Positions 4,242-49,842 of a stretch of 64,000 nt of DNA are shown one piece after another. The stretch spans positions 35,940-99,939 of the forward strand of contig QZJF01000017.1 of assembly GCA_003599255.1 (NCBI GenBank), read 5' to 3'. Both the position numbers and the translations under genes were made by a program. Within the stretch, counting starts at the first letter, position 1. The number at the start of each line of letters is the position of its first letter. The DNA is from a candidate division WWE3 bacterium (GTDB lineage Bacteria > Patescibacteriota > WWE3 > UBA101185 > UBA10185). The notes beneath the pieces are model-generated. The model was not told the origin of the DNA and searched no databases. It was given only the letters and a program-made list of their open reading frames with translations.

Positions 4242-4332
4242 TGGCGGAGGGAGGGGGATTCGAACCCCCGGGTGAGTTGCCCCACGCTTGGTTTTCGAGA
4301 CCAGCCCGTTATGACCGCTTCGGTATCCCTCC
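4242..4332 (-). tRNA. tRNA-Ser (anticodon CGA)
   Basis: Reverse complement folds as a tRNA: acceptor GGAGGGA/TCCCTCC, anticodon loop CTCGAAA, long variable arm, GGTTCGAATCC T-loop and an encoded CCA. Confidence 0.8.
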
Positions 4333-4370
4333 AGGCAACGCTTATTTATTATACAAAGTAAAGGAAACAA

Positions 4371-5033
4371 TTACTTCTGCGATAAATCGAGAGGAGCATT
4401 ATTTAAAAATATCTCAGCCTTTCTGACTGCATTGAACTGTTTTACGGTGTACTGAATTTGCTGTTCAAACCGGGGTGAGTCGCAGGTACCTCCCAGCTTT
4501 AACTCTCCAACGAGGTGGAGTTTCGCTATTCCTTGCACTATTTCAACTTTCTCCAATTTCAAATCCGACTGGTACAGAGAATTGTATAGCCCGGACTTCC
4601 CTATAAATTGGTCCTTTTGGTTGAACAAAATTTCGAGTGCAGTTTTAATCTTTTCCGAATCTTCTTTGTTTTGTACGTAAGCAGATACAGTAATCGGCAC
4701 GACGCTATCCCCACAACCGATAACTTCTTTGGATTTTCTCTTATTTCCCGTATCTACGTAATAAATCAGAATATCGTTTCCGTCGGGCTGCGGGTTTTCC
4801 GGATCCGTAAAAGCATCATTAACGGGACCGCGTTCATTTTCTCCAAGAGTTACTTCCAGCTTTGGTTCCGTTAACGGAGCATATTCCTTGTTGTACCAAT
4901 AATAAAAAGCGGCTGTTATTAACGCCACAAGCATCAAAACAATAAAAAATGTCACTTTTGCCCTTTTTGTCCCGTTTTCCTGTGTGGCCATAACTGCTTG
5001 ATTATACACCTTTGAACTTATAGTATAAAGCAT
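4371..5033 (-). CDS. GerMN-domain (sporulation/germination-like) membrane-anchored protein
   Basis: N-terminal TM helix followed by a domain with GCGDSVVPI...LYNSLYQ motifs reminiscent of GerMN/LpqB-like domains. Confidence 0.45.
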   Translation of the reverse strand: MLYTISSKVYNQAVMATQENGTKRAKVTFFIVLMLVALITAAFYYWYNKEYAPLTEPKLEVTLGENERGPVNDAFTDPENPQPDGNDILIYYVDTGNKRKSKEVIGCGDSVVPITVSAYVQNKEDSEKIKTALEILFNQKDQFIGKSGLYNSLYQSDLKLEKVEIVQGIAKLHLVGELKLGGTCDSPRFEQQIQYTVKQFNAVRKAEIFLNNAPLDLSQK

Positions 5034-5412
5034 GTCTAAATTTAGAGAAAAAGTAATAGCTGCCGTAAGAGCAGTTCCGAGGGGACAGGTTGTTAGTTAC
5101 GGACAAGTCGCATTGATGATTGGCTCCCCGCGCGCCGCGCTGCAAGTGGGATATATCCTGCACGATTATGGCGACGACGGTGTTACACCGTGGTGGAGGG
5201 TAATAAACAGGGACGGGTACATAAGTACAAATTGTGAAGAACATACTGCTCTGATGCAAAAAGAGCTACTTGAAACTGAAGACATTGCTGTTTCAGACAA
5301 AATGCAGGTGGATATGAGTAAATTCAGGTACTTGCCTGGACCGGACGTACTAAAAAAACTGGAACTGGAGGATAAATATATTGAACTTCTATATAATAAG
5401 TTTTTGAAGTGA
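5032..5412 (+). CDS. alkyltransferase-like protein (MGMT DNA-binding domain lacking active-site Cys)
   Basis: VPRGQVVSYGQVA...GSPRAA helix-turn-helix of the O6-alkylguanine-DNA alkyltransferase family. PWWRVIN replaces the PCHRV motif, as in the ATL/YbaZ-type proteins. Confidence 0.6.
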   Translation: MSKFREKVIAAVRAVPRGQVVSYGQVALMIGSPRAALQVGYILHDYGDDGVTPWWRVINRDGYISTNCEEHTALMQKELLETEDIAVSDKMQVDMSKFRYLPGPDVLKKLELEDKYIELLYNKFLK

Positions 5413-5418
5413 CACCGC

Positions 5419-6083
5419 CTAATCCTTGGTGTTTTCTCCGGAGCGAACTTCTTTAATGAAATAACTGAAAACCGTAAACGCAAAAAACAGAACTGTAAGG
5501 ATTTTTGCGACAAAGTTCACGGATAAATTTCCTCTGATTAGCGAATTTACGATACTAATACCGCTGATCACAAAAGTTACAAAGGCAACTGTCAGGGTTG
5601 CGTAAACAAGAGTAGCCCGCGTTTTTACTGTTTTTATCCAGGTGTTTTCCTTGGCCAGTTTTTCAACCTTGTTGAACAAGAACAGAAAAAGAGGCATGGT
5701 AACAATTAGAGCAGAGAGTGGCCCTTCTATTCCATAGATGCCGCCGGTCGAATTAAAAGATCCAGAATATCGACTTCTAATAGGCAGATAATAGTTGATC
5801 ACTTTAAAGATTATGTCCACCATAGAGTAAATGGAAATGTACATAGAAATAAACATTAGTACATTTAGAAACATGTCCCATTTGCTTTCGTGTGTTTCTT
5901 TATCAAAGATATTTATGTTGTCGTATGGAGGTAATGGCGTATCCTGCGCTAAATCCGATTTGAGAGCAAATTCAATGTCCTGCGATTTCCATCCGGCTTT
6001 TTGAAGCTCTTGTCTGATTTCATCATCTGAAATCTTCTTTACTCTGCGCGTACTAATAAAACTTAAGAGCTCGCGTGTGATCA
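5419..6083 (-). CDS. hypothetical membrane protein (N-terminal soluble region, ~4 TM helices)
   Basis: The long ORF 5419..6261 runs 5' into the tRNA-Ala and its repeats, so the true start must be downstream. A GTG at 6083 (VITRELL...) or a later Met is plausible. The C-terminal half is strongly hydrophobic. Confidence 0.4.
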
Positions 6084-6120
6084 CGTTTAAATTATATACC
6101 ACAAACGTCTGGTTTGTCGC

Positions 6121-6212
6121 TTGGTCCGGTCCTGGTGGACCGTAGACGTGCTGCTTGGTCCGGTCCTGGTGGACCGTAGACGTGCTGCTTGGTCCGGTCC
6201 TGGTGGACCGTA
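6121..6212. repeat. tandem 34-bp direct repeat (2 full copies plus the native copy) duplicating the 3' end and trailer of tRNA-Ala
   Basis: Unit ttggtccggtcctggtggaccgtagacgtgctgc occurs at 6121-6154 and 6155-6188, and 24 nt of it again at 6189-6212. Each copy contains the rc of the tRNA 3' end TACGGTCCACCA and a GGTCC/GGACC palindrome. Confidence 0.85.
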
Positions 6213-6276
6213 CCGGAGTCGAACCGGTGACCTCTGCAATGCGAATGCAGCGCTCTACCAACTGAGCTAACGGCCC
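6201..6276 (-). tRNA. tRNA-Ala (anticodon CGC)
   Basis: rc GGGCCGTTAGCTCAGTTGGTAGAGCGCTGCATTCGCATTGCAGAGGTCACCGGTTCGACTCCGGTACGGTCCACCA. It has the G3:U70 pair, anticodon loop TTCGCAT and an encoded CCA. Confidence 0.8.
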
Positions 6277-6381
6277 ATAACGTATTTAATTCTATCAACT
6301 ATCCCCGGCAATACAATTAAACAAAATGGCTTGTAAGGCGAATAAAACCTGTACAAGCCATCTTTTTGATACCAGACGGTT

Positions 6382-6786
6382 CTAACCACTTAAAGCGGCC
6401 ATGGCGGCATCAATTTGCCTCTGCCTATCAGCTGCTTTTGTGTAGTCTGCTTCAGAAACCAACTCGAGAGCTGCTTTCAACTCCTCCGGTGTGAATTGCC
6501 CTTTGAAGGAAATGGCTGCGCGGGTTTCGTCAATTTTCTGAAAATCAACCTCCATGACGTGATTGCCATTCCCGGTGTCAATCATTATGGTCACTTTCTC
6601 ATAAGTCGCCTCTACCGCCGGAGACACTATAAACCTCAAATAGTACCTACATGTGTTGGAGTCCCCGACAAGATCGGTAAGCAGCGCACTGGTGTGTCCG
6701 GCATCTGCCAATAAAGTCGGTATTCTTTCCTCCAACAGAGAAAGGGCCTTGTCAAACCCAATCTTATGATCGAGTGGAATACTCAT
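6382..6786 (-). CDS. hypothetical protein (higher-GC islet between two tRNA genes)
   Basis: 134-aa ORF with a protein-like composition and no recognisable motif. It lies between tRNA-Ala and tRNA-Arg. Confidence 0.4.
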   Translation of the reverse strand: MSIPLDHKIGFDKALSLLEERIPTLLADAGHTSALLTDLVGDSNTCRYYLRFIVSPAVEATYEKVTIMIDTGNGNHVMEVDFQKIDETRAAISFKGQFTPEELKAALELVSEADYTKAADRQRQIDAAMAALSG

Positions 6787-6875
6787 GATCTCTATCCTTT
6801 CGTATTTAGGGATTTGATTGTCTCAATATGGGAATTTTATAGGAACGCTAGCTTTATTGCAAGCTATAGGTCCTA

Positions 6876-6951
6876 TGGTGCACCCGGAGGGACTCGAACC
6901 CCCGACTTCAGCGTCCGCAACGCTGCGTTCTATCCTCTGAACTACGGGTGC
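6876..6951 (-). tRNA. tRNA-Arg (anticodon GCG as read from sequence)
   Basis: rc GCACCCGTAGTTCAGAGGATAGAACGCAGCGTTGCGGACGCTGAAGTCGGGGGTTCGAGTCCCTCCGGGTGCACCA. It forms a canonical cloverleaf with anticodon loop TTGCGGA. Confidence 0.7.
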
Positions 6952-6998
6952 ATAAACAAAGAGTATGTCGTCATCAGCAAAAAAGCAAATACTACCTT

Positions 6999-8618
6999 CT
7001 ACAGCTTTCGGACTTCATATTCTACTACTACTTCGTCGCTGGTATATTTTATGTAGGGTTCATTAAGTCTTTTTAATTCGTATCCGTTCTCATTTACATA
7101 TTCTTCAAACAGTGCAAAAGACCAACCCAACCCGCAAAAAACAAGTTTTCCGGATTCACCGATAATATCAGATAGCATTGAAAGCTGCCCTAGATACTCA
7201 ATCTTATAAGGTTTTTTCCATGCATTAAATGTGTATGCATCTCCATAAACGCTTGTGTAATGATCCGAATAATAATAATTTGAGTAACTGTTACCCAAGT
7301 ATAGACCGGCATCAGGGACGCTGCACATATATCCAAACAGTTTGAGACCTTGTGAAGAACTTAAAATTTTGTGTTGCTCTCTACGATTGACTGAGTATTT
7401 CTTAAAGACATCAAAATAGTTATACAGATTTAGAGAAATATAAAAAATCAGAAACACACCCAAGACTAATTTTACCCTGGCTGATGCTAATATAGCCCTG
7501 CTCAACTTACCGTTAAACATATAACTACTTATCAAACTAAAAAAGGCTAGTCCAAACGGTATAGTCAAAAAAACTGTGGGCAAAAAATACCGCAGTGTGT
7601 GGTTTTTAAAAAAAATAATTAACTGCAACGAAATTATCACTAAGCAGATGAGAATTAATCTATAACGAGAGTTTCTTGAAAAATTCTTTGGAACTCTCCC
7701 CGACAGTCTAAAATAAATTAGGAATATTGGAAACATTAAAACAAGGAAAAACATTACCGGTTCCGCGATCAAAAGTGTCGTGACCCCATTCAAAGCGATA
7801 TGGGGTTCCCATAAACCAAAACTGCCACTTCCGTAAGCTTGGGTACTTAAAATATTAACTGCGACAAATTCCAGGCTTCTATGAAATTGGGGCAGGATCG
7901 GAACAATAAAAATTGTAAAAACCAGGAAAGTTACAATTAAATACTTAATCTTTTCTTTCCTGCCATTTAGTACAACAAGAGGCAGTAGTATCAATGGAAG
8001 AAATGTGTATTTTAGCGCTAGACCCAAACCCGACAGTATCGAGAATTTTAAATAAAGCATAGGATCTTTCTTGTCGTGAGATCCTCCGAAAATGCTGATG
8101 ACTACAAACGTTATCAACAGCTGAGTTACAAACACTAGTGGGGTTTCCGGACGAAACCTCGCCAGGCTTTCGTATACAGTCAAACTTGAAAAGAACGGGC
8201 CGGCCTGGACCAAAAGTGCCAACCAAAGTGATTCGGTACTTCTATAGACCATTAATCCCGAGACAAAAAACACCAAAAACGTCAACGCTATGAGCGCCCA
8301 CACTATAGCGGTAATGTAAAATTCCGGGTTTTCAAATATCTTGTTTATAAGAACTGAATCTGAATCAAATGGGTGCAAGAACCTGATAACAATTCCTCCA
8401 AACAACTGGAGAGGCGTTCCGGGGTGGTCGGTATGACCGATAAGGTCAAATCTCAAAATCGCCACGTTTAAACTGCTGACCAAATATACATAGGCGGGAT
8501 CCGCACTAAAAGAATAGAAAAACGGACCCCGTTCCCTTACAAGGAGCAAGGAAACCACGACCAGCAAACAAGGAACAATTGCTAATATTAGTAAATTTCG
8601 TTTGATCGGGAATCTCAC
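6999..8618 (-). CDS. polytopic membrane protein, GT-C-type glycosyltransferase-like
   Basis: 539 aa with more than 10 predicted TM helices and a C-terminal soluble domain. The architecture resembles ArnT/PMT-like GT-C enzymes, but no specific motif was verified. Confidence 0.4.
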   Translation of the reverse strand: MRFPIKRNLLILAIVPCLLVVVSLLLVRERGPFFYSFSADPAYVYLVSSLNVAILRFDLIGHTDHPGTPLQLFGGIVIRFLHPFDSDSVLINKIFENPEFYITAIVWALIALTFLVFFVSGLMVYRSTESLWLALLVQAGPFFSSLTVYESLARFRPETPLVFVTQLLITFVVISIFGGSHDKKDPMLYLKFSILSGLGLALKYTFLPLILLPLVVLNGRKEKIKYLIVTFLVFTIFIVPILPQFHRSLEFVAVNILSTQAYGSGSFGLWEPHIALNGVTTLLIAEPVMFFLVLMFPIFLIYFRLSGRVPKNFSRNSRYRLILICLVIISLQLIIFFKNHTLRYFLPTVFLTIPFGLAFFSLISSYMFNGKLSRAILASARVKLVLGVFLIFYISLNLYNYFDVFKKYSVNRREQHKILSSSQGLKLFGYMCSVPDAGLYLGNSYSNYYYSDHYTSVYGDAYTFNAWKKPYKIEYLGQLSMLSDIIGESGKLVFCGLGWSFALFEEYVNENGYELKRLNEPYIKYTSDEVVVEYEVRKL

Positions 8619-8619
8619 A

Positions 8620-9213
8620 CTAAATGTTGAATTTGTCTAAGACGGACTTATAAGTCTTATCCAGAAACGATTCCGGAGGGACCTGCAGGAAATGGATCTT
8701 ACTGAGGAGAATGCTCTTTAACTTTTCAACATCGACCCCCGAAGTAGTGATATATAATCTGGACGTCACTGCAGAGGCCATTTCAATTACAAAAGCATCG
8801 TGACCTTCTTCCTGTGAAAAGAAAAACCTGCGCATTTCCTGCCAATAAAACTGTTGATTATCAATCATCAGTCCATGAGAACTTACTTCGTAAGACACGT
8901 TATCCGGAGGTGTCTCGGACAAAACATGTGTTACGAAGATCAAACTGGCGATCACGAGAATCAGGAAAAATTCCTGCAGTATTACAAGTATAAGAGCGAT
9001 AACAATTCCGATAATCATAAACGTACGGTTCAGACTGCTATTGAAACCGGTTTTTACGGGTCTTGAAGGGGCACTCCATGTCAAGAAAACTTCTTTGGGG
9101 GCAAGCTCCTCGACCTTGACCACATCCGGGAGATTTCTTTCCGCTTCGTCTGTCCCGGGCTCCCTTGTTTTCGTAATACCCAGCAAATCGGTAACTTGAT
9201 TGAGTTTTAACAT
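8620..9213 (-). CDS. hypothetical membrane protein
   Basis: The ORF 8620..9318 extends into tRNA-Ser, so it is trimmed to the ATG at 9213 (MLKLNQV...). It has one strongly hydrophobic segment. Confidence 0.4.
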   Translation of the reverse strand: MLKLNQVTDLLGITKTREPGTDEAERNLPDVVKVEELAPKEVFLTWSAPSRPVKTGFNSSLNRTFMIIGIVIALILVILQEFFLILVIASLIFVTHVLSETPPDNVSYEVSSHGLMIDNQQFYWQEMRRFFFSQEEGHDAFVIEMASAVTSRLYITTSGVDVEKLKSILLSKIHFLQVPPESFLDKTYKSVLDKFNI

Positions 9214-9270
9214 ACTGTAATTATTATCAATTATATTTGTGAAAATGGCAATCGGAGATGCCCTGAATCC

Positions 9271-9358
9271 TGGCGGAGGGTACAGGATTCGAACCTGTGG
9301 ACGGCAATTAACCGTCACGGCTTAGCAAGCCGCTGCATTACCGCTCTGCCAACCCTCC
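9271..9358 (-). tRNA. tRNA-Ser (anticodon GCT)
   Basis: rc GGAGGGTTGGCAGAGCGGTAATGCAGCGGCTTGCTAAGCCG...GGTTCGAATCC...ACCCTCCGCCA with a long variable arm. Confidence 0.8.
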
Positions 9359-9395
9359 GTACAGTTTTACATTATAGAACAAATAATATACTAGT

Positions 9396-10085
9396 TCATA
9401 CTTTTCTGCTGAGTGCAAAACATTTTACATCTGATGCACCATTCTCATATAGTGTTTTTGAGGCCTCCAAAAGAGTGGCGCCGGAAGTACATATATCATC
9501 CGCCAAAAGGAATTTCCCGTGAGTGACCAGATTTTCGTGACCCTTTCTGATGGAAAATGCACCTTTTACGTTGTCGTAGCGGTCTAGTCTGTTGTTTGTG
9601 TACTGAGGTCTTGAGTCAACATTTCTGAGCAATATTCGAGTATTTACAACCATAGAAGTTTTTTTGCTAAGTGCCTTTGTTATGGTAGTTACCTGATTGA
9701 ACCCACGTGTTCTTAGCCTTTCATCTGAGATGGGGACAGGTATCAGTACATATTTGGTCATCTGTGAGAACTCTTCTTTTACAATTTCTGCTGCCGCCTC
9801 TGAAATAATACGTAGTCCAAGAAACTCCCTACGTGCATATTTTGCTCTTCGTATAACAGATCTGACCAGTGAACAGTATTTGAACACAGATACAAAACTC
9901 GAAGGCACTACATCATTTCTGCATGAAAGGTGTGTTGTGCCATCTTCCGAAAACTTGCCACATACTAAACACTCGCTGTACTCCATTGTCACCATTTTTG
10001 ATACGCATAATTCACAGATAAATCTGCCGTCACGTAAGCAGAATAAACATTTCGGAATAAAAATTAAATCTAAAAAGCTATCCAT
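9396..10085 (-). CDS. comFC: ComF-family protein (double zinc ribbon + phosphoribosyltransferase domain)
   Basis: N-terminal CxxC...CxxC zinc ribbon. C-terminal PRTase motif FLLADDICTSGATL (hhhhDDhhTTGaT). Confidence 0.7.
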   Translation of the reverse strand: MDSFLDLIFIPKCLFCLRDGRFICELCVSKMVTMEYSECLVCGKFSEDGTTHLSCRNDVVPSSFVSVFKYCSLVRSVIRRAKYARREFLGLRIISEAAAEIVKEEFSQMTKYVLIPVPISDERLRTRGFNQVTTITKALSKKTSMVVNTRILLRNVDSRPQYTNNRLDRYDNVKGAFSIRKGHENLVTHGKFLLADDICTSGATLLEASKTLYENGASDVKCFALSRKV

Positions 10086-10310
10086 ATATTATCCACAATC
10101 ACGTATTTGCTGACTTAACAAGATAATCCGCCAACCACACCTATAGTATGATTGATGTCCAGTCCTATAGTTATATATGCGGGGGAGTAATCATTCAATA
10201 CAGTAGATTCCAATGAAATTGGACAAAAAATGGCAGGAAAAGGTGATTTTTAAATCAACCGATTCCTGCCTTTCGGCTCTCCCAACTTCGCTACATTTGC
10301 CTAAGTTGTC

Positions 10311-10529
10311 CTATACAGGACAGGGCTTGCCGGATACTAGTGCGGCTTTGCAGGATCCACAAATTCGTCTACCGCACGACGGGCATCTGTTTGAGAATTT
10401 TGAACCGTTCTCTCCTTTCTCAGTTTCACAATGCCCACAAATTTTGCCGTCGGAAGACGGTATCCACCCTGCCATCTGGACAATCATTGCCGTAAGTACG
10501 GCGGCCACAAAAAACGTAAGATGTTTCAT
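10311..10529 (-). CDS. small secreted Cys-rich (zinc-ribbon-like) protein
   Basis: 72 aa with a signal-peptide-like N-terminus (MKHLTFFVAAVLTAMIVQMAGW) followed by CGHC...CPSCGRRICGSC. A GGAGG sits 5 nt upstream of the ATG. It is preferred over the overlapping + strand ORF 10213..10635. Confidence 0.4.
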   Translation of the reverse strand: MKHLTFFVAAVLTAMIVQMAGWIPSSDGKICGHCETEKGENGSKFSNRCPSCGRRICGSCKAALVSGKPCPV

Positions 10530-10649
10530 TCAAACCTCCGGGTTGTCTGGTCTAGCCTTGTTTTCGGCTGTCGGGAAAGTGAAAACAGTATACTACCTTA
10601 TGGATTTTTTCCAAATTTATGCAACAATCTGGTAAATTCGGATACTAAG

Positions 10650-12047
10650 ATGGACGAAAAAACGAAAAAAGAGATGGATAGTCTGGCAAAGATCAGAGAC
10701 TTCTATATCAACAAAAACAATTACTATTACACACAGCTGGTAAAACATATAAACTTGTTGCTTAACAAAAAGGGTTCTGTACTTGAACTTGGATGCGGAA
10801 CCGGGTACGTGCTAAATAAGCTCCACGGCATAGCAAAAACAGGTATAGATATTTCTCAGGAAATGATAGAAATATCAAAAGAAAAGTACTCAGGTATTGA
10901 ATTTGTATGCACGGAAAAACCCGAAACTCTCGGAAAGAAGTTTGAATACATAATAGTATCGGATACGCTTGGATATCTTTCTGATATACAGGAATTTTTA
11001 GGAACCATAAAACCTCTTTTCGAAAGAGAGTCCCGTCTTATCATTACCATTCACAATCACATTTGGAATCCGATTTTAAGATTGGCGGAATCTTTCAAGT
11101 TAAAAATGCCCTATGTTCATGAAAATTGGCTTCAGCAGTCCGAAGTTATCAACCTACTTAACCTCGAGGAATATCAGGTAATTTCTCATTCCAGAAAAGT
11201 CCTGTTACCTATTTACATACCGTTCGTCTCAAACTTTATTAACAGATATATTGCCCCGCTCCCAATCATAAATTGGTTTTGCCTGATAGAAATTATTGTT
11301 GCAAGGCTGGTTCCGCTACAAAAAGATTATTCCGTTAGCGTAATTGTGCCTGCGCGCAACGAAGAGGGTAACATATCAAAAATAATTAATGGGGTACCTA
11401 ATATGGGAAACGGAACCGAACTAATATTTATTGAGGGAAATTCGTCCGATAAAACATATGAGGCAATTCAAAGTGAATCGGAAAAGTATTTAGGGGAGAT
11501 CGACATAAAGTACTTTAAGCAAAACGGAACCGGTAAAAAAGACGCTGTATACAAGGGTTTCGAAAAGGCGACGGGAGAAATACTAATGATTCTGGACGCG
11601 GATGCCACTGTAAAACCGGCGGAATTGAAAAAGTTCTATGCTGCCATTTCGAAAGGTAAGGGCGAATTCATTTATGGATCAAGGCTAGTTTATCCAATGG
11701 AAAAGGAGGCTATGCAAACCCTAAACCAAATTGCAAATGAAGCATTCGCCTCAATTTTCAGTTGGATTTTTAATCAACGCATCACGGACACACTATGCGG
11801 AACCAAGGTACTATTTAAATCCGACTGGGAATCTCTAAAATCGGATATCATGAGTTTCGGAAAAAACGATCCGTTTGGTGATTTTGACCTTTTATTTGGT
11901 GCGTATAAAGGTAACCTTAAATTTCTGGAGATTCCGATAAAATATCGGGCCAGGGACTATGGAAACACAAATATCAGCAGATTTAAAAACGGGGGGGATC
12001 TACTCAAGATGACTTTTAAAGCTGCCGGAAGAATAAAATTCGTATGA
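10650..12047 (+). CDS. bifunctional class-I SAM methyltransferase / family-2 glycosyltransferase
   Basis: N-terminal VLELGCGTGY methyltransferase motif I. C-terminal SVIVPARNEE...ILDADATV (GT2 DxD region). Start set at the internal ATG at 10650; the upstream part of ORF 10431.. is not protein-like. Confidence 0.6.
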   Translation: MDEKTKKEMDSLAKIRDFYINKNNYYYTQLVKHINLLLNKKGSVLELGCGTGYVLNKLHGIAKTGIDISQEMIEISKEKYSGIEFVCTEKPETLGKKFEYIIVSDTLGYLSDIQEFLGTIKPLFERESRLIITIHNHIWNPILRLAESFKLKMPYVHENWLQQSEVINLLNLEEYQVISHSRKVLLPIYIPFVSNFINRYIAPLPIINWFCLIEIIVARLVPLQKDYSVSVIVPARNEEGNISKIINGVPNMGNGTELIFIEGNSSDKTYEAIQSESEKYLGEIDIKYFKQNGTGKKDAVYKGFEKATGEILMILDADATVKPAELKKFYAAISKGKGEFIYGSRLVYPMEKEAMQTLNQIANEAFASIFSWIFNQRITDTLCGTKVLFKSDWESLKSDIMSFGKNDPFGDFDLLFGAYKGNLKFLEIPIKYRARDYGNTNISRFKNGGDLLKMTFKAAGRIKFV

Positions 12048-12775
12048 GTATTCTGGAAAAACACAAAAAAGCATGGGATTCAAACGAAGTGCTCAGATAC
12101 GTATATTGCAAATGGTATAAACAAATAGTAGCTGATCTAAGCCAAAAAGGCACCGAACAGGAAAAAACTGTTGAGATCGGTTCAGGAATTGGCAGTTTTA
12201 AAGAATTTTATCCCAAATGCATATCTACCGATATTGGAGACAACCCCAATGCGGAAATGCGCTTTGATGCACACGAGATGCCTTTTGAAAACGAAAGCGT
12301 AGATAATTTAGTTCTCATTGACGTATTGCACCATTTGCAGAATCCTTTGAAATTTCTCGGAGAGGGCGCACGTGTTCTCAAAAAGGGTGGAAGGCTCATC
12401 ATGCTCGAACCGTACCCTTCCATTATGTCACGGTTGATTTTTGGAATGTTTCACCGGGAACCGTTTGACTTCAGGATCAACATCTACAATGTGAATCAAA
12501 ATTCCGATAAGGATCCATGGGAGGGCAACCAAGCTATACCGTATTTAATTTTTTGTAAGAATGGTTCAAAGTTTGAGGATGATTTTGGGGGCGCTTACAT
12601 TATCAGGAAAAAAGATTTTGTCACTACACTTGTTTATCCTGTGTCGGGTGGATTTAGCTTCGGCCCCCTATTGAGTGGGAATCTTGTTAGTACTGTTGAG
12701 AAATTTAACCGAATCACCGCCAAATTCCCCGGACTATTCGCCTTTAGAATCTATATTGTGTTAGAGAAAAAATAA
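12044..12775 (+). CDS. class-I SAM-dependent methyltransferase
   Basis: VEIGSGIGSF motif I and LKKGGRLIMLEP motif (Methyltransf_11-like). There is a 4-nt start/stop overlap with the upstream gene. Confidence 0.6.
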   Translation: MSILEKHKKAWDSNEVLRYVYCKWYKQIVADLSQKGTEQEKTVEIGSGIGSFKEFYPKCISTDIGDNPNAEMRFDAHEMPFENESVDNLVLIDVLHHLQNPLKFLGEGARVLKKGGRLIMLEPYPSIMSRLIFGMFHREPFDFRINIYNVNQNSDKDPWEGNQAIPYLIFCKNGSKFEDDFGGAYIIRKKDFVTTLVYPVSGGFSFGPLLSGNLVSTVEKFNRITAKFPGLFAFRIYIVLEKK

Positions 12776-12779
12776 CTTT

Positions 12780-13187
12780 TGGCGGAGATGGCGGGAATCG
12801 AACCCACGTGCTGAAAAAACTGCATATAAGTCCTACAAGCTTAGTCAAGTTTATCTTAGGCAGGAATGGTACATGACAAACCTATACCTGCAGCAAGTCC
12901 GACGGGTTACCCTTTTGAGATTACCTCTCCCGGCACTAATACTAGGACTACCTTTACAAGCGGCCTCATCTCGGTTTTATAAAGATCTTAATTCCCTTCC
13001 GAGCAAGCGATGTAAGACCTGCAGTCTAAATAAATTAGGCTGCTACACCGGCGTATGCGGGAACCGCAACATCGGCGTATGCGAAGTCATTATCTTCGGC
13101 ATTTATATTTTTGCTGTATTTTACGCAGTACAGCACTTCGGCCTGCACTTATATTTGGTTATTTCCAGTCAAATCCTGGTCATCTCC
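12780..13187 (-). ncRNA. ssrA: tmRNA (ssrA)
   Basis: The 5' end GGAGAUGACCAGGAUUUGACUGG resembles the canonical tmRNA start. The 3' end is a tRNA-like T-arm GGUUCGAUUCCCGCC plus acceptor and CCA. An internal ORF ends ...AYAGVAA-stop (ALAA-like tag). It lies next to smpB. Confidence 0.65.
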
Positions 13188-13240
13188 ATTTTTAAAAGTA
13201 GAATTTTGTGCCGGAATTATAGCAAATAAAACCCGAAGCT

Positions 13241-13711
13241 TCAAGCCTCTATAATGCGTTTTATCTCTTTGGTATCACGCTCGAGATCCTTCTGAATTTG
13301 CCTGTCTTTTGCGGTCTGTTTCTTTTCGTATTCCTTCTTTCCTTTCACAACAGCAAATTCCAGCTTTATATAATTATTGTTCATCACCAATGCTAAAGGA
13401 ACGGCAGTCCTGCCTTTTTGTGTGAGTTCCTTTCGGATTTCTTCAATTTCGTTGGCGTTAAGCAGCAGGTCTCTGTTCCGCTTTTCATCTCCTAGACCTG
13501 AAGGCCTGCCCTTTTTGGAATAGGTTCCTATATGCATGTTTACAACACAGGGGCGCCCCTCGAAAAGCTGAACATAAGTACCTTCAAAACTGACTTTCTT
13601 TTCTCTGACTGCCTTAACCTCATCCCCCCGCAAAGCTATACCGGCAACGTATTTTTCTATTATAGTATGGTCGTGCAGAGCACCCCTGTTTTTCGCTAGT
13701 AATAAAGACAT
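13241..13711 (-). CDS. smpB: SsrA-binding protein SmpB
   Basis: 156 aa with the typical SmpB length and sequence (IAKNRGALHDHTIIEKYVAGIALRGDEVKAVR...) and a basic C-terminal tail. Confidence 0.85.
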   Translation of the reverse strand: MSLLLAKNRGALHDHTIIEKYVAGIALRGDEVKAVREKKVSFEGTYVQLFEGRPCVVNMHIGTYSKKGRPSGLGDEKRNRDLLLNANEIEEIRKELTQKGRTAVPLALVMNNNYIKLEFAVVKGKKEYEKKQTAKDRQIQKDLERDTKEIKRIIEA

Positions 13712-39589: not shown

Positions 39590-40206
39590 GAAAAACAGGA
39601 ATTATACCCGCAGTTGTATACGGAAACGATATCACTCCTTCGTCCATTCAGTTGAATTTGAATGAATTTATCAAGGTTTATGGCGAAATAGGCGAAACCG
39701 GTCTTATTGACCTTAAGCTTGAAAAGGAAACACACAAAATACTTATTAATGATGTGCAGTATGATCCTATTTCCGGAAGAATAATACATACAGGACTTTA
39801 CAAACCCAACCTTAAGGAAAAAACTGAGGTTGAAGTTCCTGTTGAAATCATAGGAGAGGCTAAAAATCCGTTACTAAAAAGCGGGGGGGCAATATTATTG
39901 ACCTTACTTAACGAAGTCCGTGTAAGCGCACTGCCGACTGATTTACCGGACGCATTTGTGGTTGACGTATCGGGACTACTAGAACCGGGAGCCGGCATTA
40001 CAGTTGCAGAATTAAAGTATGACAAGGGTAAAGTGGAAATTGTTGATAGTGACCCCGAAGAACTTGTTGTTAAACTTGATGTACCTACCATGGAAGAACC
40101 TGAAGAGGAAGTTCCCGTAACTGAGGAAGAGGCAATTGCACAGATGGAGGCAACAGAAGAGAAAGAAGAAGACGAAGAAGAGGCATCTGAGAAGGCGCAA
40201 GAGTAA
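39535..40206 (+). CDS. rplY: 50S ribosomal protein L25 / general stress protein Ctc
   Basis: N-terminal KSLRKTGIIPAVVYG signature and the acidic C-terminal extension typical of Ctc-form L25. Confidence 0.8.
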   Translation: MELTGQKREKTGKQTKSLRKTGIIPAVVYGNDITPSSIQLNLNEFIKVYGEIGETGLIDLKLEKETHKILINDVQYDPISGRIIHTGLYKPNLKEKTEVEVPVEIIGEAKNPLLKSGGAILLTLLNEVRVSALPTDLPDAFVVDVSGLLEPGAGITVAELKYDKGKVEIVDSDPEELVVKLDVPTMEEPEEEVPVTEEEAIAQMEATEEKEEDEEEASEKAQE

Positions 40207-40340
40207 TTCCCCGATTTTACAATATATTCCAAAAGTTATATCATAGGTATCACCAAAAATCGTAGGTCGTAAACCCATGAATCGTGCGGAATTCCTGAGG
40301 TATGACAACAAAACCATATTCAGAGTAAAGAGGAGACAGT

Positions 40341-40472
40341 ATGCTAACCTACATTAAGTGTGTCGTCAGTCGTGTGCGTCATTTCGTGAACGCAGGATGG
40401 TGTCCGAGGTGCAAACAGAATTCAGTTGTGGACGGTATCTGTGAAATTTGCGGGTGGCCGCACTGCAAGTAG
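40341..40472 (+). CDS. 43-aa zinc-ribbon mini-protein (not in ORF track)
   Basis: Sequence is MLTYIKCVVSRVRHFVNAGWCPRCKQNSVVDGICEICGWPHCK, preceded by AGGAGA 5 nt upstream. It carries CPRC...CEIC motifs. Confidence 0.3.
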   Translation: MLTYIKCVVSRVRHFVNAGWCPRCKQNSVVDGICEICGWPHCK

Positions 40473-40623
40473 CCTCGTAGGTGAGCAACCATTGATTTAC
40501 CGGTAATATCTTTAGGGGAATTTGATACTCCGCACTATCATTTTCCCCTTTTTTATTTCAAAAAACAAAACAGGGAAGTGGAAAACCAATTGAATGGTTT
40601 TGAACTTCCCTGGAATTTTCAGA

Positions 40624-41934
40624 TCATTCTGCGGGCACAGGATGGGTTGCAGACCAGACGAGAAGGGCCTTTAACGCATCTTCCGCACGGGCGGGACGTT
40701 TTCTGCTCCTGCGGCGCTGGCGTTTGCCGGCATCTTCCTCGGATTGCGTTACATCTTCCTCGGAACCACCGGAATCCTCCTCCTCTTCTTCCTCACTTTC
40801 AGCAGTGTTGCGCCACATCAAACGGTTAACTTGCTGCATCTCCTGAAGAAATGCAGGGGAAGCAAAATCTTCAATCTGGCGCGTCCGCGTGTTAGCCACG
40901 TTAAGCTTGGGCCATCCAGACTTTTGGATTTTGATAAGTTCCCACCAAGCGGTCATCACAGAGGGACCTACTTCCTCAGCAAGGGCAGCCTCGTGGGAGG
41001 GTTTCCCGCTTTCAGCACCGAGCATAGTACTTATAATCGTCAACGTACCACACTCAAAATGCCCGGCAGTAGCAAGCAATCTCTTGGTTGCAGAAACACT
41101 CGCCGTGGAAATACCACCTGAAATCATACCTGCGTTTGCAGGCTTTATGATTTCATCTGAACGACTGTGGCTCATGAGAATACGGGAAGCCGAATCCATT
41201 AGTACCACAACATCAAACCCGCTGCGCGTCAACTGCTTTGCACGTTCCAAAACAAAACGGGCAACCCAGTAGTGTGCGGCCTCGCGGTCTCCATCAGGAG
41301 TTGTATACAGTTCGACCTGCTCCCGATCGTGCTCCACCTCGCGAAGGATGCTGTAAAATCCCGTTCCATCCTCCGCACGCTCACCTACGTGAAGAATCAA
41401 AATCTTCATCTTAGGATTGCTGCGGGAAACATTAAGCAGTCCCCTAAGCACATCCCGGATGAGCCATGTCTTACCAGTGTCCGGGGGTGAAACAATTCCA
41501 AGCCTTTGCCCATATCCGATAGGACTCAGCAAAGTAGCGGCCCGGATAGAGTGAATGCCGAATTTGTCAATTCGAAGTGCCCTTTTGGCGTAGTCAGCAC
41601 GAAGTGCGCCTACTCCTTCGATTTTCGGGCGATCCAGCACTTTTCTCGGATCTGTCAAACCATTTACGGAAATTATTTTGCCGTTTCCGTTAATGGCTAA
41701 CAAATCACCAGTACCAAGTCCCCACTCTACGACAACATCCTTGGGCAGCTCAATACGGTTCTCCCTCATTACTGTGGGATCCGTAAGGTGGTCCCAGGCA
41801 AAAATCCTGAGCCAATCCGCCGAAGGTATGAACGCAGTATTGGGAATAGGCAACTGGCCACTCTTAACCTGCTGCACAGTGGGTTGCAACTCTTGCTGCA
41901 ACACATATGCGTACTTCAAATCTGCCATACCCAT
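40624..41934 (-). CDS. rho: transcription termination factor Rho-family ATPase with unusual acidic/basic C-terminal tail
   Basis: LLSPIGYGQRLGIVSPPDTGKT (Rho Walker A context), VVVLMDSASRIL (Walker B/ITRLARA region) and GTLTIISTML. The C-terminus has E/D/S-rich then R/K-rich ~70 aa not typical of Rho. The gene is GC-rich. Confidence 0.65.
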   Translation of the reverse strand: MGMADLKYAYVLQQELQPTVQQVKSGQLPIPNTAFIPSADWLRIFAWDHLTDPTVMRENRIELPKDVVVEWGLGTGDLLAINGNGKIISVNGLTDPRKVLDRPKIEGVGALRADYAKRALRIDKFGIHSIRAATLLSPIGYGQRLGIVSPPDTGKTWLIRDVLRGLLNVSRSNPKMKILILHVGERAEDGTGFYSILREVEHDREQVELYTTPDGDREAAHYWVARFVLERAKQLTRSGFDVVVLMDSASRILMSHSRSDEIIKPANAGMISGGISTASVSATKRLLATAGHFECGTLTIISTMLGAESGKPSHEAALAEEVGPSVMTAWWELIKIQKSGWPKLNVANTRTRQIEDFASPAFLQEMQQVNRLMWRNTAESEEEEEEDSGGSEEDVTQSEEDAGKRQRRRSRKRPARAEDALKALLVWSATHPVPAE

Positions 41935-42097
41935 CTCCTTCTTTTTTATTTCCTACCCGAATTCGGGGTTAGGATCATATAATCTTTTTGGTACGAAATT
42001 ATTAGCAAAAAAACTATCTGATCACAACCCCTGTATTTTTAAAAGAACCTCGGAAGGCAACAGTCACTTTTCAGTTTACTATTGCCTTCCGTAGAAA

Positions 42098-43132
42098 TTA
42101 GTGAGGACGTTCGCTCGACAAAATGTCAAACTCGCTTACCTCTAAACGCTCCGGCTCAGGCACGGGTAACCCGGTCTTGCGGTCCCAAAGCCAGGGATCC
42201 TCCACAAGATACAGATCGAAAGGTTCGCCTTCAGGAAACACCGTGTCTCTGCGCGAGGCAATCGAATGTACTTTGTCAGCGCTTGTCCTGGGGTTATGCG
42301 GTTGCGCAAAGTCACCTACGGCAGCCTGTGCTATTGCGCCAGGGAAAATTCCCAAGGTTCTTTGCAAATCTCCACAGCGTTTGCCAATTGTTCTTGCACA
42401 ATCCACCGTACCAGGTGCCTGATCAAACCATGGTGAAAGGTCGGCGCCTCCTACAACACGGGTCGGCCAGTATATAGACGCGATTTTGAACATTGCCGTC
42501 AATATCCTGGAGAACGTATCCCGCAAAACGCCTGTCTTCGGTCCGCCGATTTTTTCAACATCGGTATCAATCTTCACTTCTTCCAAAAGCGCTGTTGGGC
42601 CGGATGATTCGTTGATATCGTTGCCGGGTATCAGCCCAAAAAACAGCAGTGTCAACCAGACAGGGCGTGCCGTGGCAAAATATGTGGTGTCGGTACAGAC
42701 CACAAATCGTTGCCCTCTTATCCGTTTCCACTCATATACCCAGTAGACAAAAGGTATAGTGGCAATACTTACAAAGATAATTACCAAAATGGTAATGGGG
42801 GACATTTCCTCCGACACAAAAGTCGTCGAACCGAAGTTCGAGAGATTGATTATGGAAACGCGTACCCGTTCGATCAGCAGTCCGAGCAGCGGGGCGAGAA
42901 TTACAAGAGCAATAGTATACATTCCTACGCTCCACACTGTGGTTGCTACCTTTGAAGGCACAACAACCATTTCAAGCCGTGCTCCCGGTCCGGGCCGAAC
43001 AGTCCGTTCCATAAGCCATATCTTGTCGAAATACTTCAGAACCGGTTTTTCAAGCAGCACTCCAAGCGCCACCATCAAACAAGTCCAAAGTATCAAAAAC
43101 AGCCCTATTAGCATGTAAGGTGCTGCGTCCAT
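42098..43132 (-). CDS. hypothetical polytopic membrane protein (T4SS-cluster associated)
   Basis: 344 aa with 4-5 N-terminal TM helices and a C-terminal soluble domain. It lies in the GC-rich block next to the hydrolase and ATPase genes. Confidence 0.4.
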   Translation of the reverse strand: MDAAPYMLIGLFLILWTCLMVALGVLLEKPVLKYFDKIWLMERTVRPGPGARLEMVVVPSKVATTVWSVGMYTIALVILAPLLGLLIERVRVSIINLSNFGSTTFVSEEMSPITILVIIFVSIATIPFVYWVYEWKRIRGQRFVVCTDTTYFATARPVWLTLLFFGLIPGNDINESSGPTALLEEVKIDTDVEKIGGPKTGVLRDTFSRILTAMFKIASIYWPTRVVGGADLSPWFDQAPGTVDCARTIGKRCGDLQRTLGIFPGAIAQAAVGDFAQPHNPRTSADKVHSIASRRDTVFPEGEPFDLYLVEDPWLWDRKTGLPVPEPERLEVSEFDILSSERPH

Positions 43133-43278
43133 TAGAATCTTTCTGTACGCTCCTCTCTTTCTAGTATTTGACCCTTTTTTTAATTGGGTAGAATTTGATC
43201 ACAAAAATATTATGTTCAAAACCCACCGAACTAAATTCCAAAGAGCGGTCAAAAAGGATATACCTTTAGTAACCGCTC

Positions 43279-44715
43279 CTATCTTGCATACTCTCTCGGA
43301 TCAACCCATTTTCCTAAGAAATTGTGCGGGTTGAGCCATCCCGGATCCATTTGATACCACTTAACAAAATCGTCCGGATGAAGGTCTGTGACACCAAAGT
43401 GAATATGGGAACCATGGGCGAACCCAGTAGCACCGCACTCTCCAATGACATCGCCCTTCTTAACAGAATCGCCGTAATTAACGCGTAAGGCACTAAGATG
43501 GCCATAGAAGCTGAATATGCCTCCGTGATCAACCCAAAGCGCCAGACCCCAACCAAAAGGATCGTTTTTGTACACGTAACGACTTGGGTTAACCACAACT
43601 CCGTCCGCTACAGCCAGGATAGGCTTGCCGACAGCACACCCATAGTCAACACCTAAGTGAAATGGTGCAGGAGGCGAGACTAATAGGGTAGAACCCCAAT
43701 CCTGACTTAAACCATTATTATCTTGAGGCTTCAACGGAAGCGATAGCCATTGCTGGGCTTCCCCTGAAGCTGCTACGGAAATGTTTTCCGGCAGAAGATC
43801 AAACATTTGCAGGAAGGCCACAAGCATAGACGCCAACCATCCCTCAGCGGAATCATTGTAAACAGTATGCTGAGAAACGTTCAGATCGCCTACTATCGGA
43901 CCGAGCTCCTCATTGATTTTATGAGACCTTCTGACAAGTAGCTCACGGTAGGCTTGGTTACGATTCCAACCGTAAAGTCTGTTGATCTTTTGGGCATCGT
44001 CCAAATCTGCTGAATATCTGATTGCGTCCAACCACCATGCACTTGCATGCGGGGCGGTTTTAGGCAACCAGTAATCGCAGGAGGCGATATCCTGATCTTC
44101 TGACTTGCTCAAACCATCGCGGCAGATTTTGAGTCCGGTTGAGGGAAGTATCCCCTGAGAACCCATCTCTGCTGCAGCACAGTGTCCAATGTAACCGCTG
44201 TAATCATCATAAACGTATTGTGCGGCTATCGGATTGTGTGCTCTGATATCGAATTCCTGCCAGTGCTTTAGATGCCAATCAATGGCAGCCAACTCGACGG
44301 CGGGATTTATATTGGTCAGACCTGCTGCAACGGTTTTAGCGTCACAACTGCCCATGTTTCGGCCACCTCCGGATTCATACTGGAAAATGGCTAACATGAT
44401 ACCAATATCGATATCGGCGTCAAAATCTTCCTTCACCCAGTTGATAGCTGCTATTGTGTTGGCGACAACCTCAGGATCGTATCCCAGGGCTGCAACCTTT
44501 TCCGCATCCGACTGGGATAAACTATACGTTGAGCTTGCGGTTGCCTGAATGCCCAGGATACCGGACAAGGTGCTTTCGAACCAATCCGGCATGGAATCCT
44601 TGAGAACCCCCAACGCTACAACTGTTCCAAATGTAAGCAAACAGAGCAGCGTTGGGAGTATCAGGGCAACAAGCAGAACCGCGCGCATTAAGCACGATCC
44701 TGGATTTATGCGCAT
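43279..44715 (-). CDS. bifunctional peptidoglycan hydrolase: lysozyme-like/SLT domain + M23 (LytM) peptidase (VirB1/PrgK-like)
   Basis: N-terminal TM, then IGIMLAIFQYESGGG (SLT E-S motif). C-terminal HLGVDYG...ALWVDHGGIFSFYGHL...GATGFAHGSHIHF (M23 HxxxD...HxH motifs). Confidence 0.7.
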   Translation of the reverse strand: MRINPGSCLMRAVLLVALILPTLLCLLTFGTVVALGVLKDSMPDWFESTLSGILGIQATASSTYSLSQSDAEKVAALGYDPEVVANTIAAINWVKEDFDADIDIGIMLAIFQYESGGGRNMGSCDAKTVAAGLTNINPAVELAAIDWHLKHWQEFDIRAHNPIAAQYVYDDYSGYIGHCAAAEMGSQGILPSTGLKICRDGLSKSEDQDIASCDYWLPKTAPHASAWWLDAIRYSADLDDAQKINRLYGWNRNQAYRELLVRRSHKINEELGPIVGDLNVSQHTVYNDSAEGWLASMLVAFLQMFDLLPENISVAASGEAQQWLSLPLKPQDNNGLSQDWGSTLLVSPPAPFHLGVDYGCAVGKPILAVADGVVVNPSRYVYKNDPFGWGLALWVDHGGIFSFYGHLSALRVNYGDSVKKGDVIGECGATGFAHGSHIHFGVTDLHPDDFVKWYQMDPGWLNPHNFLGKWVDPREYAR

Positions 44716-44735
44716 CGGGGTGTCCTTTCGAGGGG

Positions 44736-46679: not shown

Positions 46680-46960
46680 CAGTAGAAACCTCCTGTTCGT
46701 TTTTTTGCCTCTTAACCTGTATGGCTAGGGCTTAGATCCGCTTTCCTAAATAAAGAAAAACAGGTCAAAGCCCTAGTTCAACTTACGGTTAAAGGCACTT
46801 TCTAGATTGTAAAAGTACAACTTAAGCTGTTTCGATCTCAGTCATTTAATTGACGCGATCTCATCAGGCCCGGGAATTACCGGACTACAGGATAAGAAAT
46901 TAAAAGGAGCGGGTGCCCAAAACAGAACTATTGTTTTGTCTTGGGACACCCGTAGTGCTC

Positions 46961-47254
46961 TCATTTGAACCGATGCTCGGTAATTCTGGTGGCCATGGAA
47001 GGCTCCCGAATGTGCGAGGGCTCTATGTAAATTTTCCTATACCGTCGATCCTGGAACTTCAAAATGATCTTGAAGCACAAAAACACCAGGAAAACGGCCA
47101 GAATAACCGGGAGTGCATACTCCGGCATTCTGTATACAAGGAAAAAGGACATAAACGCCAACCCGTAACCGATCTTTGTAATCTTTCGAGGTTTATACGT
47201 CGGATCACAAAGTTCGAACCAAGCATCAACGAGACGTCTAAGCTGTTTTCTCAT
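46961..47254 (-). CDS. VirB3-like small membrane protein
   Basis: 97 aa with two hydrophobic helices. It lies upstream of the VirB4-like ATPase and overlaps the stop of the VirB6-like gene, i.e. the VirB3 position in T4SS operons. Confidence 0.35.
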   Translation of the reverse strand: MRKQLRRLVDAWFELCDPTYKPRKITKIGYGLAFMSFFLVYRMPEYALPVILAVFLVFLCFKIILKFQDRRYRKIYIEPSHIREPSMATRITEHRFK

Positions 47255-49209: not shown

Positions 49210-49236
49210 GGCCTATTCCTTTTGGGCTCTTCGAGC

Positions 49237-49509
49237 TTAGGGAATAAGCCCGATAAAGAAACTGGAAATCTTGTCTACCAGCCCGCCGGGAGCAACACCG
49301 TTTTCGACGATGTTGAATGCAAAACCGACGGCCAAGGCGGCTGCCAGGAACAGCTGGAGAACCATCATAAGTCCGCCGCTATCCTTGCTGTCGCCAGCGC
49401 CCTTTACGAGACCCTTTGGACCCAAAAAGACGTTCCAAAGGAGCCCGATGATCCCCGCCAACATGATGAATTCAAGGATTTGGCGGGCCAAGGTGTTTAA
49501 AGCTTCCAT
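49237..49509 (-). CDS. VirB2/TrbC-like pilin-family protein (paralog 5)
   Basis: Start set at the internal ATG at 49509 with GGAGGT upstream. 90 aa with two hydrophobic helices separated by an LGPKGLVKGAGDSKD loop. Confidence 0.45.
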   Translation of the reverse strand: MEALNTLARQILEFIMLAGIIGLLWNVFLGPKGLVKGAGDSKDSGGLMMVLQLFLAAALAVGFAFNIVENGVAPGGLVDKISSFFIGLIP

Positions 49510-49842
49510 CGTATACCTCCGTATAGGTTGGGACGCGTCGCAACAAAGCGGCACATCCATTGGATTAGTGGCACCCTCTTTTTCAGGGATGAACACAAGC
49601 TACCCTCCAGTAGGGAACCTGAAAGGCAGTTCGTGTTCATCCACGAAGGGTGTGCGCCGATTATTGGTTCAAATGAATAAAATTTTAAAGAGCACAAACA
49701 CAACACTTCACACCATAGGTGCTACATGCTTTATTCTATTACTCTCTTTCCTCTCTTTTATTTGGGCAAAAAAAGCTGTAAAGCTTTTCCATTACAAACA
49801 ACTAAATCTTAATTGTCTGTATTTGAAAAGTTTTAAAACTTG

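Follow-up and report, generated by a model that had tools for sequence, protein, structure and literature searches.

A transfer RNA (tRNA) gene that is followed by exact copies of its own 3' end raises the question how these copies came about and whether they serve the cell. Such a gene, an intact tRNA-Ala(CGC), lies in the window analysed here, a 64,000-nt stretch of contig QZJF01000017.1 from a candidate division WWE3 bacterium, and the tract behind the gene is described in tRNA sense, i.e., on the minus strand. A preliminary description of this DNA, made from the letters alone, had reported a 34-bp unit of tRNA end plus trailer in three head-to-tail copies, and it had named serial integration and excision at an attachment (att) site as well as replication slippage as possible origins. 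The repeat is real and its copies are 100% identical, but it amounts to 2.76 units and not to three full copies. We give an even chance to the reading that the tract represents a displaced tRNA 3'-end module which has become short and was recently amplified in tandem. Both origins proposed before, att insertion and slippage, seem to contribute a part.

Anatomy of the repeat tract behind tRNA-Ala

Tandem Repeats Finder (TRF) placed a periodic tract at 6119-6212 with a period of 34, 2.8 copies, 100% matches and 0 indels, and a second repeat search of the window returned the same three copies. The tract measures 94 bp (2x34+26), and on the minus strand its order is tRNA body, A-B-C-A-B-C-A-B and then the unique sequence GACAAACCAGACGTTTGTGG. 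Here, A denotes the last 12 nt of the tRNA including CCA (TACGGTCCACCA), B the following 14 nt (GGACCGGACCAAGC) and C 8 nt (AGCACGTC). The three A blocks (A1, A2, A3) are identical 12-mers, the three A+B blocks form a 26-bp direct repeat of identical 26-mers, and the 8-bp filler C in between is identical both times. For a 19-mer derived from the unit, 3 occurrences were counted in the window, compared to 0.01 expected by chance. Since the copy most distal to the tRNA lacks the final 8 nt, and since three native 34-mers would need at least 102 periodic bases while the tract has 94, a plain triplication of the native 34-mer is excluded. Three 26-bp direct repeats (A+B) parted by two identical 8-bp fillers are a more fitting description of the tract. 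Its parts are the following.

6201..6276, minus strand: tRNA-Ala(CGC), intact, with G3:U70 and encoded CCA, its last 12 nt (6212-6201) being A1 (ARAGORN; Rfam tRNA 69.5 bits; folding)
6119..6212, minus strand: entire periodic tract, A-B-C-A-B-C-A-B (TRF, repeat search, sequence)
6179..6200, minus strand: spacer 1, composed of B (6200-6187) and C (6186-6179) (sequence; aligned to the relatives L091 and L098)
6167..6178, minus strand: A2, first displaced exact copy of the tRNA 3' end, TACGGTCCACCA (sequence)
6145..6166, minus strand: spacer 2, composed of B (6166-6153) and C (6152-6145), same as spacer 1 (TRF, sequence)
6133..6144, minus strand: A3, second displaced exact copy of the tRNA 3' end (sequence)
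6119..6132, minus strand: B3, third 14-nt segment past CCA, where the periodicity stops with no C following (sequence, repeat search)

Every unit contains the palindrome CGGTCC-ACCA-GGACCG (6+4+6), in which the GGACCG of B is complementary to the CGGTCC at the tRNA end. The preliminary description had rightly recognized that it puts CCA into a hairpin loop, and the palindrome is one pair longer on each side than given there. The longest exact repeat inside the tract measures 60 nt. No substitution separates the copies, which indicates that the amplification step is recent. Among the other RNA genes of the window, three tRNAs and the transfer-messenger RNA (tmRNA) lack the hairpin and have no additional copy of their 3' end.

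Other descriptions of the tract were considered and rejected. A fourth, decayed unit in the distal flank is not significant (p=0.10). The tract contains nine GGWCC sites, and a restriction-site cluster was discarded as GGWCC occurs at the expected frequency in the window (76 vs 77). It is not an array of clustered regularly interspaced short palindromic repeats (CRISPR), with both spacers being identical and no CRISPR repeat match being found within the tract. Nor is it an intrinsic terminator: a scan detected no terminator-like site in 6100-6215, and the hairpins of the tract continue into GGACC or AAGC, not into a U tract. A search of 5800-6500 against Rfam 15 with E values up to 10 returned the tRNA model as the sole match.

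Displaced tRNA 3' ends in syntenic relatives

Relatives were reached through the MGMT-like neighbour of tRNA-Ala, and their contigs, designated by L numbers, share the order tRNA-Ser(gct), tRNA-Arg(gcg), tRNA-Ala(cgc), MGMT-like gene and tRNA-Ser(cga), which occupies 4242-13711 in the window. Because this gene order is conserved, the tRNA-Ala trailers can be compared as orthologous positions. The same order is kept in quite distant genomes of the Candidate Phyla Radiation (CPR; L001, L006, L098, L099, and L105). The preliminary description had pointed to the tRNA-Ala locus in other genomes of the lineage as a check on its claim, and the orthologous trailers of two related lineages indeed carry displaced 3'-end copies. 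The array as such occurs in no relative and lacks a U-tract terminator, so that an array conserved in all relatives as a terminator structure, which had been named as an alternative, does not apply.

The closest relative is represented by L091 and L093, two different assemblies from the WWE3 RIFOXYD1_FULL_39_9 lineage, in which the MGMT-like protein is 76% identical. In L091, tRNA-Ala is followed by a 92-nt structured insert, an exact 19-nt copy of the tRNA end at +112 that begins in the T-loop, a 61-nt spacer and an exact 12-nt copy at +185. The 61-nt spacer is homologous to the sequence found immediately behind tRNA-Ala in L098, L001, and L002, and thus the block in front of it is a genuine insertion between 19-bp direct repeats.

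L091, 7779-7889, minus strand: 111-bp insertion after tRNA-Ala, composed of the 92-nt insert and the 19-nt tRNA-end copy (sequence comparison)

The fold of this insert is unusually stable (-46.2 kcal/mol, z=-4.3) and has a GTAA-capped hairpin. The 12-nt copy of L091 is preceded by GCGCGTC and the copies in the window by GCACGTC, the junction reading GCACGTC followed by TACGGTCCACCA. In L098 and L104, again two assemblies (MGMT-like protein 58-59% identical), TACGGCCCACCA is found at +81, preceded by ACGTT. This copy (1931-1942 region of L098, minus strand; also in L104) carries a change of U70 to C and would pair Watson-Crick with G3 of the tRNA. The arrangements of L091/L093 and of L098/L104 are each identical between the independent assemblies.

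The spacers resemble each other as well. The 22-nt spacer of the window aligns with the last 27 nt ahead of the L091 copy (p=0.003 vs shuffles) as GGA-CCGGACCAAGC----AGCACGTC in the window and GGATACGTACTAAGCGCGAAGCGCGTC in L091. It likewise aligns with the L098 tRNA-Ala trailer (p=0.02) and with the end of the L098 tRNA-Ser insert (p=0.003), and it shows no alignment to unrelated insert ends (p>0.4). These comparisons provide good but not conclusive support that the unit of the window descends from the same kind of module.

The phenomenon extends to further tRNA genes. ARAGORN was applied to all syntenic loci and the last 12 nt of each tRNA were sought up to 500 nt downstream with at most 1 mismatch, leaving out of the count duplicate assemblies and two cases that were the next tRNA-Ser gene. 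A displaced copy of the own 3' end was found behind 10 of about 45 tRNA genes, at distances of 34-356 nt (nine exact, one with a single mismatch), compared to a chance expectation of about 0.05 overall or about 0.001 per gene. Partial cases occur besides in L004 and L002. The positive genes are distributed as follows.

L006: tRNA-Ser(gct), tRNA-Arg, tRNA-Ser(cga), and tRNA-Ser(gga)
L001: tRNA-Ser(gct) and tRNA-Ser(cga)
L098: tRNA-Ser(cga) and tRNA-Ala
L091: tRNA-Ala
Window: tRNA-Ala

The copies have a sharp start, which for tRNA-Ser and tRNA-Arg is C56 of the T-loop, they extend past CCA by up to 8 nt, and they match their own tRNA even where the T-stems vary between genomes. One and the same insert family can stand behind several tRNAs, each time with repeats that correspond to the tRNA at that place, which fits a target-derived duplication better than an att site brought along by the element (attP). 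None of the relatives' inserts matches Rfam. An explanation of the inserts as decayed whole-tRNA duplicates or mini-pseudogenes was rejected, as their similarity to tRNA bodies is not significant (p=0.2-0.96), and so were group I introns, since the inserts fall short of intron size, end in a nucleotide other than G and follow a tRNA that is already complete, and since no Rfam intron model matches.

One family of structured inserts, termed E1, was found in the relatives only.

L006:2102-2252, L006:229-381, L006:4769-4918, and L001:4694-4845: homologous E1 inserts of ~130 nt behind tRNA-Ser (cga), (gct), and (gga)

Each E1 insert is followed by an exact 21-nt copy of its tRNA, from C56 to CCA. 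Insert and displaced copy together fold into a three-way junction of 27 pairs with 98% of cells paired, and 6 pairs show compensatory double changes in the four sequences, while 0 of 500 shuffles were as good and slid controls gave 0-1. In the closing helix, a 7-mer from inside the insert pairs with the 7 nt at which the displaced copy begins, and this helix covaries with the local tRNA (AGAUUCG/CGAAUCU, GGAUUCG/CGAAUCC, and GGAUUUG/CAAAUCC). Given this covariation of insert and copy, at least a part of the modules must be more than mere debris. No E1 copy was found in the window by BLAST, a viral scan with the E1 core gave zero matches and the inserts have no match in Rfam.

Further observations concern other inserts and trailers. 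In L001 (L001:1247-1601), the 344-bp insert that separates tRNA-Ser(gct) from its displaced 12-nt copy (17 nt identity) codes for a protein of 85 aa with a GIY-YIG domain (Pfam E=2.8e-15), a hint that some inserts may carry a nuclease. Another family of inserts, ~143 nt long, was seen behind tRNA-Arg(gcg) (L006:1212-1375, L004:2-109); its members close with GCGTGAC, after which the 3' part of tRNA-Arg is repeated exactly over 21 nt, and they are 92% identical between two Saccharibacteria/Patescibacteria genomes. A motif of roughly A(A/G)ATNTT(A)GCGAA..AAGTGAGC(G) stands directly after tRNA genes in several CPR genomes and was seen in the tRNA-Ala trailers of L001, L002, L091, and L098 and in the tRNA-Arg trailers of L001 and L006. 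In the tRNA-Ala trailer of L105/L106, TCTACGGTTTTC lies 14 nt past CCA and right before a TATAAT box (L105:1768-1811, minus strand) and may be a decayed displaced copy. The distal flank of the tract in the window, CAGACGTTTGTGGTATATAAT (6091-6118), resembles this region of L105, a likeness that is not significant.

Origin of the tract and competing explanations

The arrangement in the relatives suggests that the history of the tract would have begun with an insertion at the tRNA-Ala 3' end in an ancestor by which the target was duplicated, either as an att-type direct repeat or as a long target-site duplication, leaving tRNA, insert and displaced 3' end. In the window, again judged from the relatives, the insert would have been reduced to the 8 bp between the 26-bp direct repeats. 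Finally, as the anatomy of the tract suggests, unequal homologous recombination or slipped-strand mispairing of the 26-bp repeats would have added one unit, a step that the 6+4+6 palindrome may have aided. Had decay occurred twice independently, it would not have ended in the same 8 nt both times, and the last step must therefore be a local amplification. Of the origins considered before, slippage (or unequal crossover) thus retains the final step but not the ancestry, which the relatives suggest to be of insertion type. The att-type origin retains the 26-bp direct repeats and the displaced copies of the relatives but lacks an integrase, an element and a further att copy.

Several points weigh against this history. 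Neither by the array nor in the rest of the 64 kb was an integrase, a transposase or cargo found; no recombinase domain was detected in 17 open reading frames (ORFs) of the window compared with Pfam and none was recognized by eye in the remaining ORFs. The 26-bp site is present on no free element in the viral, phage, plasmid, and metagenome collections, which were searched for att copies by exact match or BLAST only and in which CPR elements are poorly sampled. A 21-mer across A+B had no match in the metagenome collection, from which the source contig is itself absent so that the power of this search is limited, and the unit had no BLAST match in phages and plasmids. Moreover, the spacer homology is drawn from short sequences and the comparisons were picked after inspection. 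No clear tRNA-Ala copy is found in L103, in which the MGMT-like protein is 70% identical, nor in L099, L101, L105, L001, L006, and L002-L005, and this patchy spread among the relatives requires several losses or several gains. Finally, the copy number derives from a single assembly, and short k-mers could misresolve the 60-nt internal repeat.

Among the matches obtained in these searches, a single one to the unit in IMG/VR was judged to be chance as it lies inside a GC-rich gene. The gapped pattern ACGGTCCACCA-N10-40-ACGGTCCACCA had at least 80 metagenome and 2 viral matches; among the matches listed none is located at tRNA-Ala or coincides with a tRNA end, and most are GGTCCACCA repeats that would encode Gly-Pro-Pro. 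The literature searched describes the general att-fragment phenomenon only and contains no tandem or miniature versions in CPR bacteria.

Pure local slippage, in which a hairpin-forming trailer produced the repeat de novo, without any insertion history and with a merely coincidental likeness to the relatives, is in our view unlikely. It would account for perfect head-to-tail copies with a period of 34 and 100% matches, as expected for a variable number tandem repeat (VNTR), for a palindrome in each unit that could stall replication, for the lack of mobile-element genes nearby and for the window's other tRNAs being without such repeats. However, 2.76 units cannot come from duplication of the native 34-mer and need a pre-existing A-B-C-A-B or a later deletion. 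Furthermore, filler and spacer match the sequence ahead of the displaced copies in L091 and L098, and displaced 3' ends in the relatives are far above chance frequency.

A functional RNA is a distinctly less probable explanation. In this case, the module would be co-transcribed and its 34-nt units would act as acceptor-stem-like hairpins with a free 3' ACCA, either because an RNase P-type 5' cut of the unit makes the mature CCA end of the upstream tRNA, or as mimics that serve as decoys for enzymes or toxins recognizing tRNA 3' ends. RNA folding bears on this point. tRNA-Ala by itself folds as a cloverleaf (-29.8 kcal/mol). In the predicted minimum free energy (MFE) fold of tRNA plus trailer, the acceptor 3' strand pairs with the GGACCG of the trailer and CCA lies in the tetraloop, and this predicted misfold beats the cloverleaf-enforced fold by 6-7 kcal/mol, equally for 1, 2, 3, and 4 units. 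As the energy gap is equal, the copy number contributes nothing to the predicted misfolding, which speaks against a functional array. Taken from CCA to CCA, the unit GGACCGGACCAAGCAGCACGUCUACGGUCCACCA is predicted to form a hairpin of 6(+3) bp with a free ACCA (-11.7 kcal/mol, z=-2.2; dot-bracket (((((((((..........)))..))))))....), that is, an acceptor-type helix with a single-stranded 3' NCCA which begins exactly past each CCA. A spacer segment is predicted to pair with the displaced copy also in L091 and L098. In addition, the compensatory changes of the unrelated E1 family back a pairing of insert and copy, and the identity of displaced copies to their own tRNA despite T-stem differences between genomes would suit a function. 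Alanyl-tRNA synthetase needs G3:U70, whereas the unit hairpin with its GGACCG strand gives A3-U70, as read from the sequence, and therefore lacks the alanine identity pair. An identical 25-nt tRNA 3' half was found by a GTDB scan in six CPR species, each with a single tRNA end, and their trailers are unrelated to that of the window over the first 160 nt and form no hairpin. These unrelated trailers reject a terminator or processing signal conserved across the six species, and a general role is made less likely by the lack of a conserved hairpin behind this same tRNA in other species. The window's three other tRNAs and tmRNA without a hairpin and the absence of an Rfam match to the tract also weigh against a functional RNA. 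The fold thus permits, and does not demonstrate, a role as acceptor mimic or in RNase P processing.

Very unlikely is an assembly artefact, by which a true genome with one or two copies would have been mis-resolved at a short graph cycle. The sequence exists in one assembly only, as the 254,712-bp JGI contig Ga0104761_1000010 of sample 3300007354, which contributed locus L008 with the same array (L008:3575-3668), is the NCBI record and not independent of it, and the 60-nt internal exact repeat exceeds common maximal k-mers such as 55. On the other side, the 94-bp tract is below the typical read length, with spanning reads normally fixing the copy number, comparable multi-copy arrangements of the relatives recur in independent assemblies, and a genome with one extra copy fewer would still contain the A-B-C-A-B core.

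Live attachment sites, with the A+B copies as tandem attB sites left as one scar per integration and excision cycle of an active element, are highly improbable: the CGGTCC/GGACCG inverted repeat about ACCA does recall the core site of a recombinase and tRNA 3' ends are classic integration sites, where integrative elements leave a target-duplication signature (PMC9897764), but conservative site-specific excision restores a single site without a scar, two independent scars are not expected to share an identical 8-bp filler, the 34-bp unit alone cannot be the product of recombination, and neither an integrase in the 64 kb nor a matching attP in any of the collections searched was found. The literal serial integration and excision scars of the preliminary description, for which it had suggested searching for an integrase or an element with the att-like sequence, are accordingly not favoured.

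Returning to the displaced and amplified module, its consequences for the host appear limited. The tRNA-Ala gene stays intact and functional, and no host function of the array is indicated. Read-through RNA can, as predicted, form CCA-loop hairpins or 34-nt acceptor-like hairpins. The array alone is a small curiosity, and its value lies in a lineage-wide phenomenon that affects about one tRNA gene in five of the ~45 examined; the displaced 3' ends across the lineage and the structured, target-matched insert family are the part worth following up. With some reservation we also consider that the array might belong, as the smallest representative now visible, to an undescribed class of either small elements or trailer RNAs behind tRNA genes in WWE3 and other CPR bacteria, a proposal with a small chance of being right. 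Members of this class would always end in an exact copy of the tRNA's own 3' part, which begins in the T-loop or the acceptor strand and reaches CCA or, in some cases, a few nt more. Such a class would imply either a guide-like, target-matched insertion with long target duplication or a tRNA-end mimic that co-evolves with the tRNA. If mobile, its members would be unusually small tRNA-directed elements in genomes thought to be streamlined; if functional RNAs, they would have a bearing on how CPR bacteria mature or protect tRNA 3' ends.

Genomic neighbourhood and comparison with known systems

Upstream of tRNA-Ala, the window encodes a 134-aa orphan protein, and downstream of it a DUF5671 membrane protein, the MGMT-like protein, a Germane-domain protein and tRNA-Ser(cga). 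Among 5.8 billion proteins, the 134-aa protein and the DUF5671 protein each matched nothing but themselves. The features next to the array are the following.

6101..6117, minus strand: small hairpin ACAAAC-CAGAC-GTTTGT just beyond the array, without a U tract (sequence; in all MFE folds)
6091..6120, minus strand: promoter-like GCGACA-N18-TATAAT for the downstream gene (consensus match only, 10/12)
5419..6102, minus strand: DUF5671 membrane-protein gene (Pfam PF18920, E=1.6e-12; public gene call, start GTG 6102)

The -35 hexamer of the promoter-like sequence, a consensus match only, overlaps the distal end of the array, and the amplification sets the tRNA 68 bp farther from this site. An in-frame GTG at 6084, 7 nt past TATAAT and 18 nt downstream of GTG 6102, is an alternative start of the DUF5671 gene, the mRNA of which may be leaderless from this position. 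A TATAAT-like box seemingly stands just upstream of each tRNA of the conserved cluster, and tmRNA and smpB are close by in the window and in L098. The ORFs 5419..6261 and 6092..6298 exist as reported before, and their N-terminal extension over the repeats is indeed artefactual, as the public DUF5671 call begins at GTG 6102. The array hence produces false ORF extensions, and it could mislead tRNA annotation and assembly.

At a distance from the array, 40000-52000 of the window differs in composition, with a G+C content of 0.48-0.51 compared to about 0.40 elsewhere. Among its products are two ATPases, one ATP-synthase-like and one of the AAA type, as well as an M23 peptidase that has a lytic domain and several large unknowns, and the block may be a horizontally acquired or secretion/pilus-related island. 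It was considered as the missing integrative element and rejected, since it contains neither an integrase nor a tRNA fragment and is not flanked by direct repeats.

Among known systems, direct repeats of a tRNA 3' end are reportedly described as attL/attR by Reiter in 1989 and by Williams in 2002. They flank prophages, integrative and conjugative elements (ICEs) and genomic islands (reviewed in PMC9897764). The tract shares with them an intact tRNA behind which part of the 3' end recurs exactly and is sharply bounded, and a repeat that runs a few nt beyond CCA. In the relatives, the T-loop or the acceptor strand is where the copies begin, and these are typical integrase sublocations. In contrast to attL/attR, the DNA between the repeats comprises 8 bp in the window and 61-344 bp in the relatives instead of kilobases of cargo, no integrase was found next to the repeat in the window, and the relatives' repeats match each local tRNA behind one insert family.

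Cis-mobilisable or miniature elements (CIMEs) are att-flanked elements that derive from integrative elements; those known are kilobase-sized and lie beside related ICEs. They resemble the modules as short gene-less DNA with att-type repeats at a tRNA gene, whereas the inserts compared here measure 8-150 bp and no autonomous partner was seen. The acceptor minihelix or microhelix-Ala is said to serve as a substrate in the work of Francklyn and Schimmel on tRNA acceptors. The predicted hairpin of the window is similar in that its 3' strand is the acceptor strand of tRNA-Ala followed by A73-CCA, and it differs by its 6 (+3) bp, its A3-U70 pair, the lack of a T-arm stack and its encoding in the trailer. 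With minisatellites and VNTRs, finally, the tract shares perfect head-to-tail 34-bp units in an intergenic position and the likely mechanism of the last amplification step, while it is unlike them in that the unit includes part of a functional gene and that 2.76 units are built on 26-bp repeats plus a filler with homologues in other species. The array is in this sense a tRNA att-type direct repeat joined with a tandem repeat, both of known kinds.

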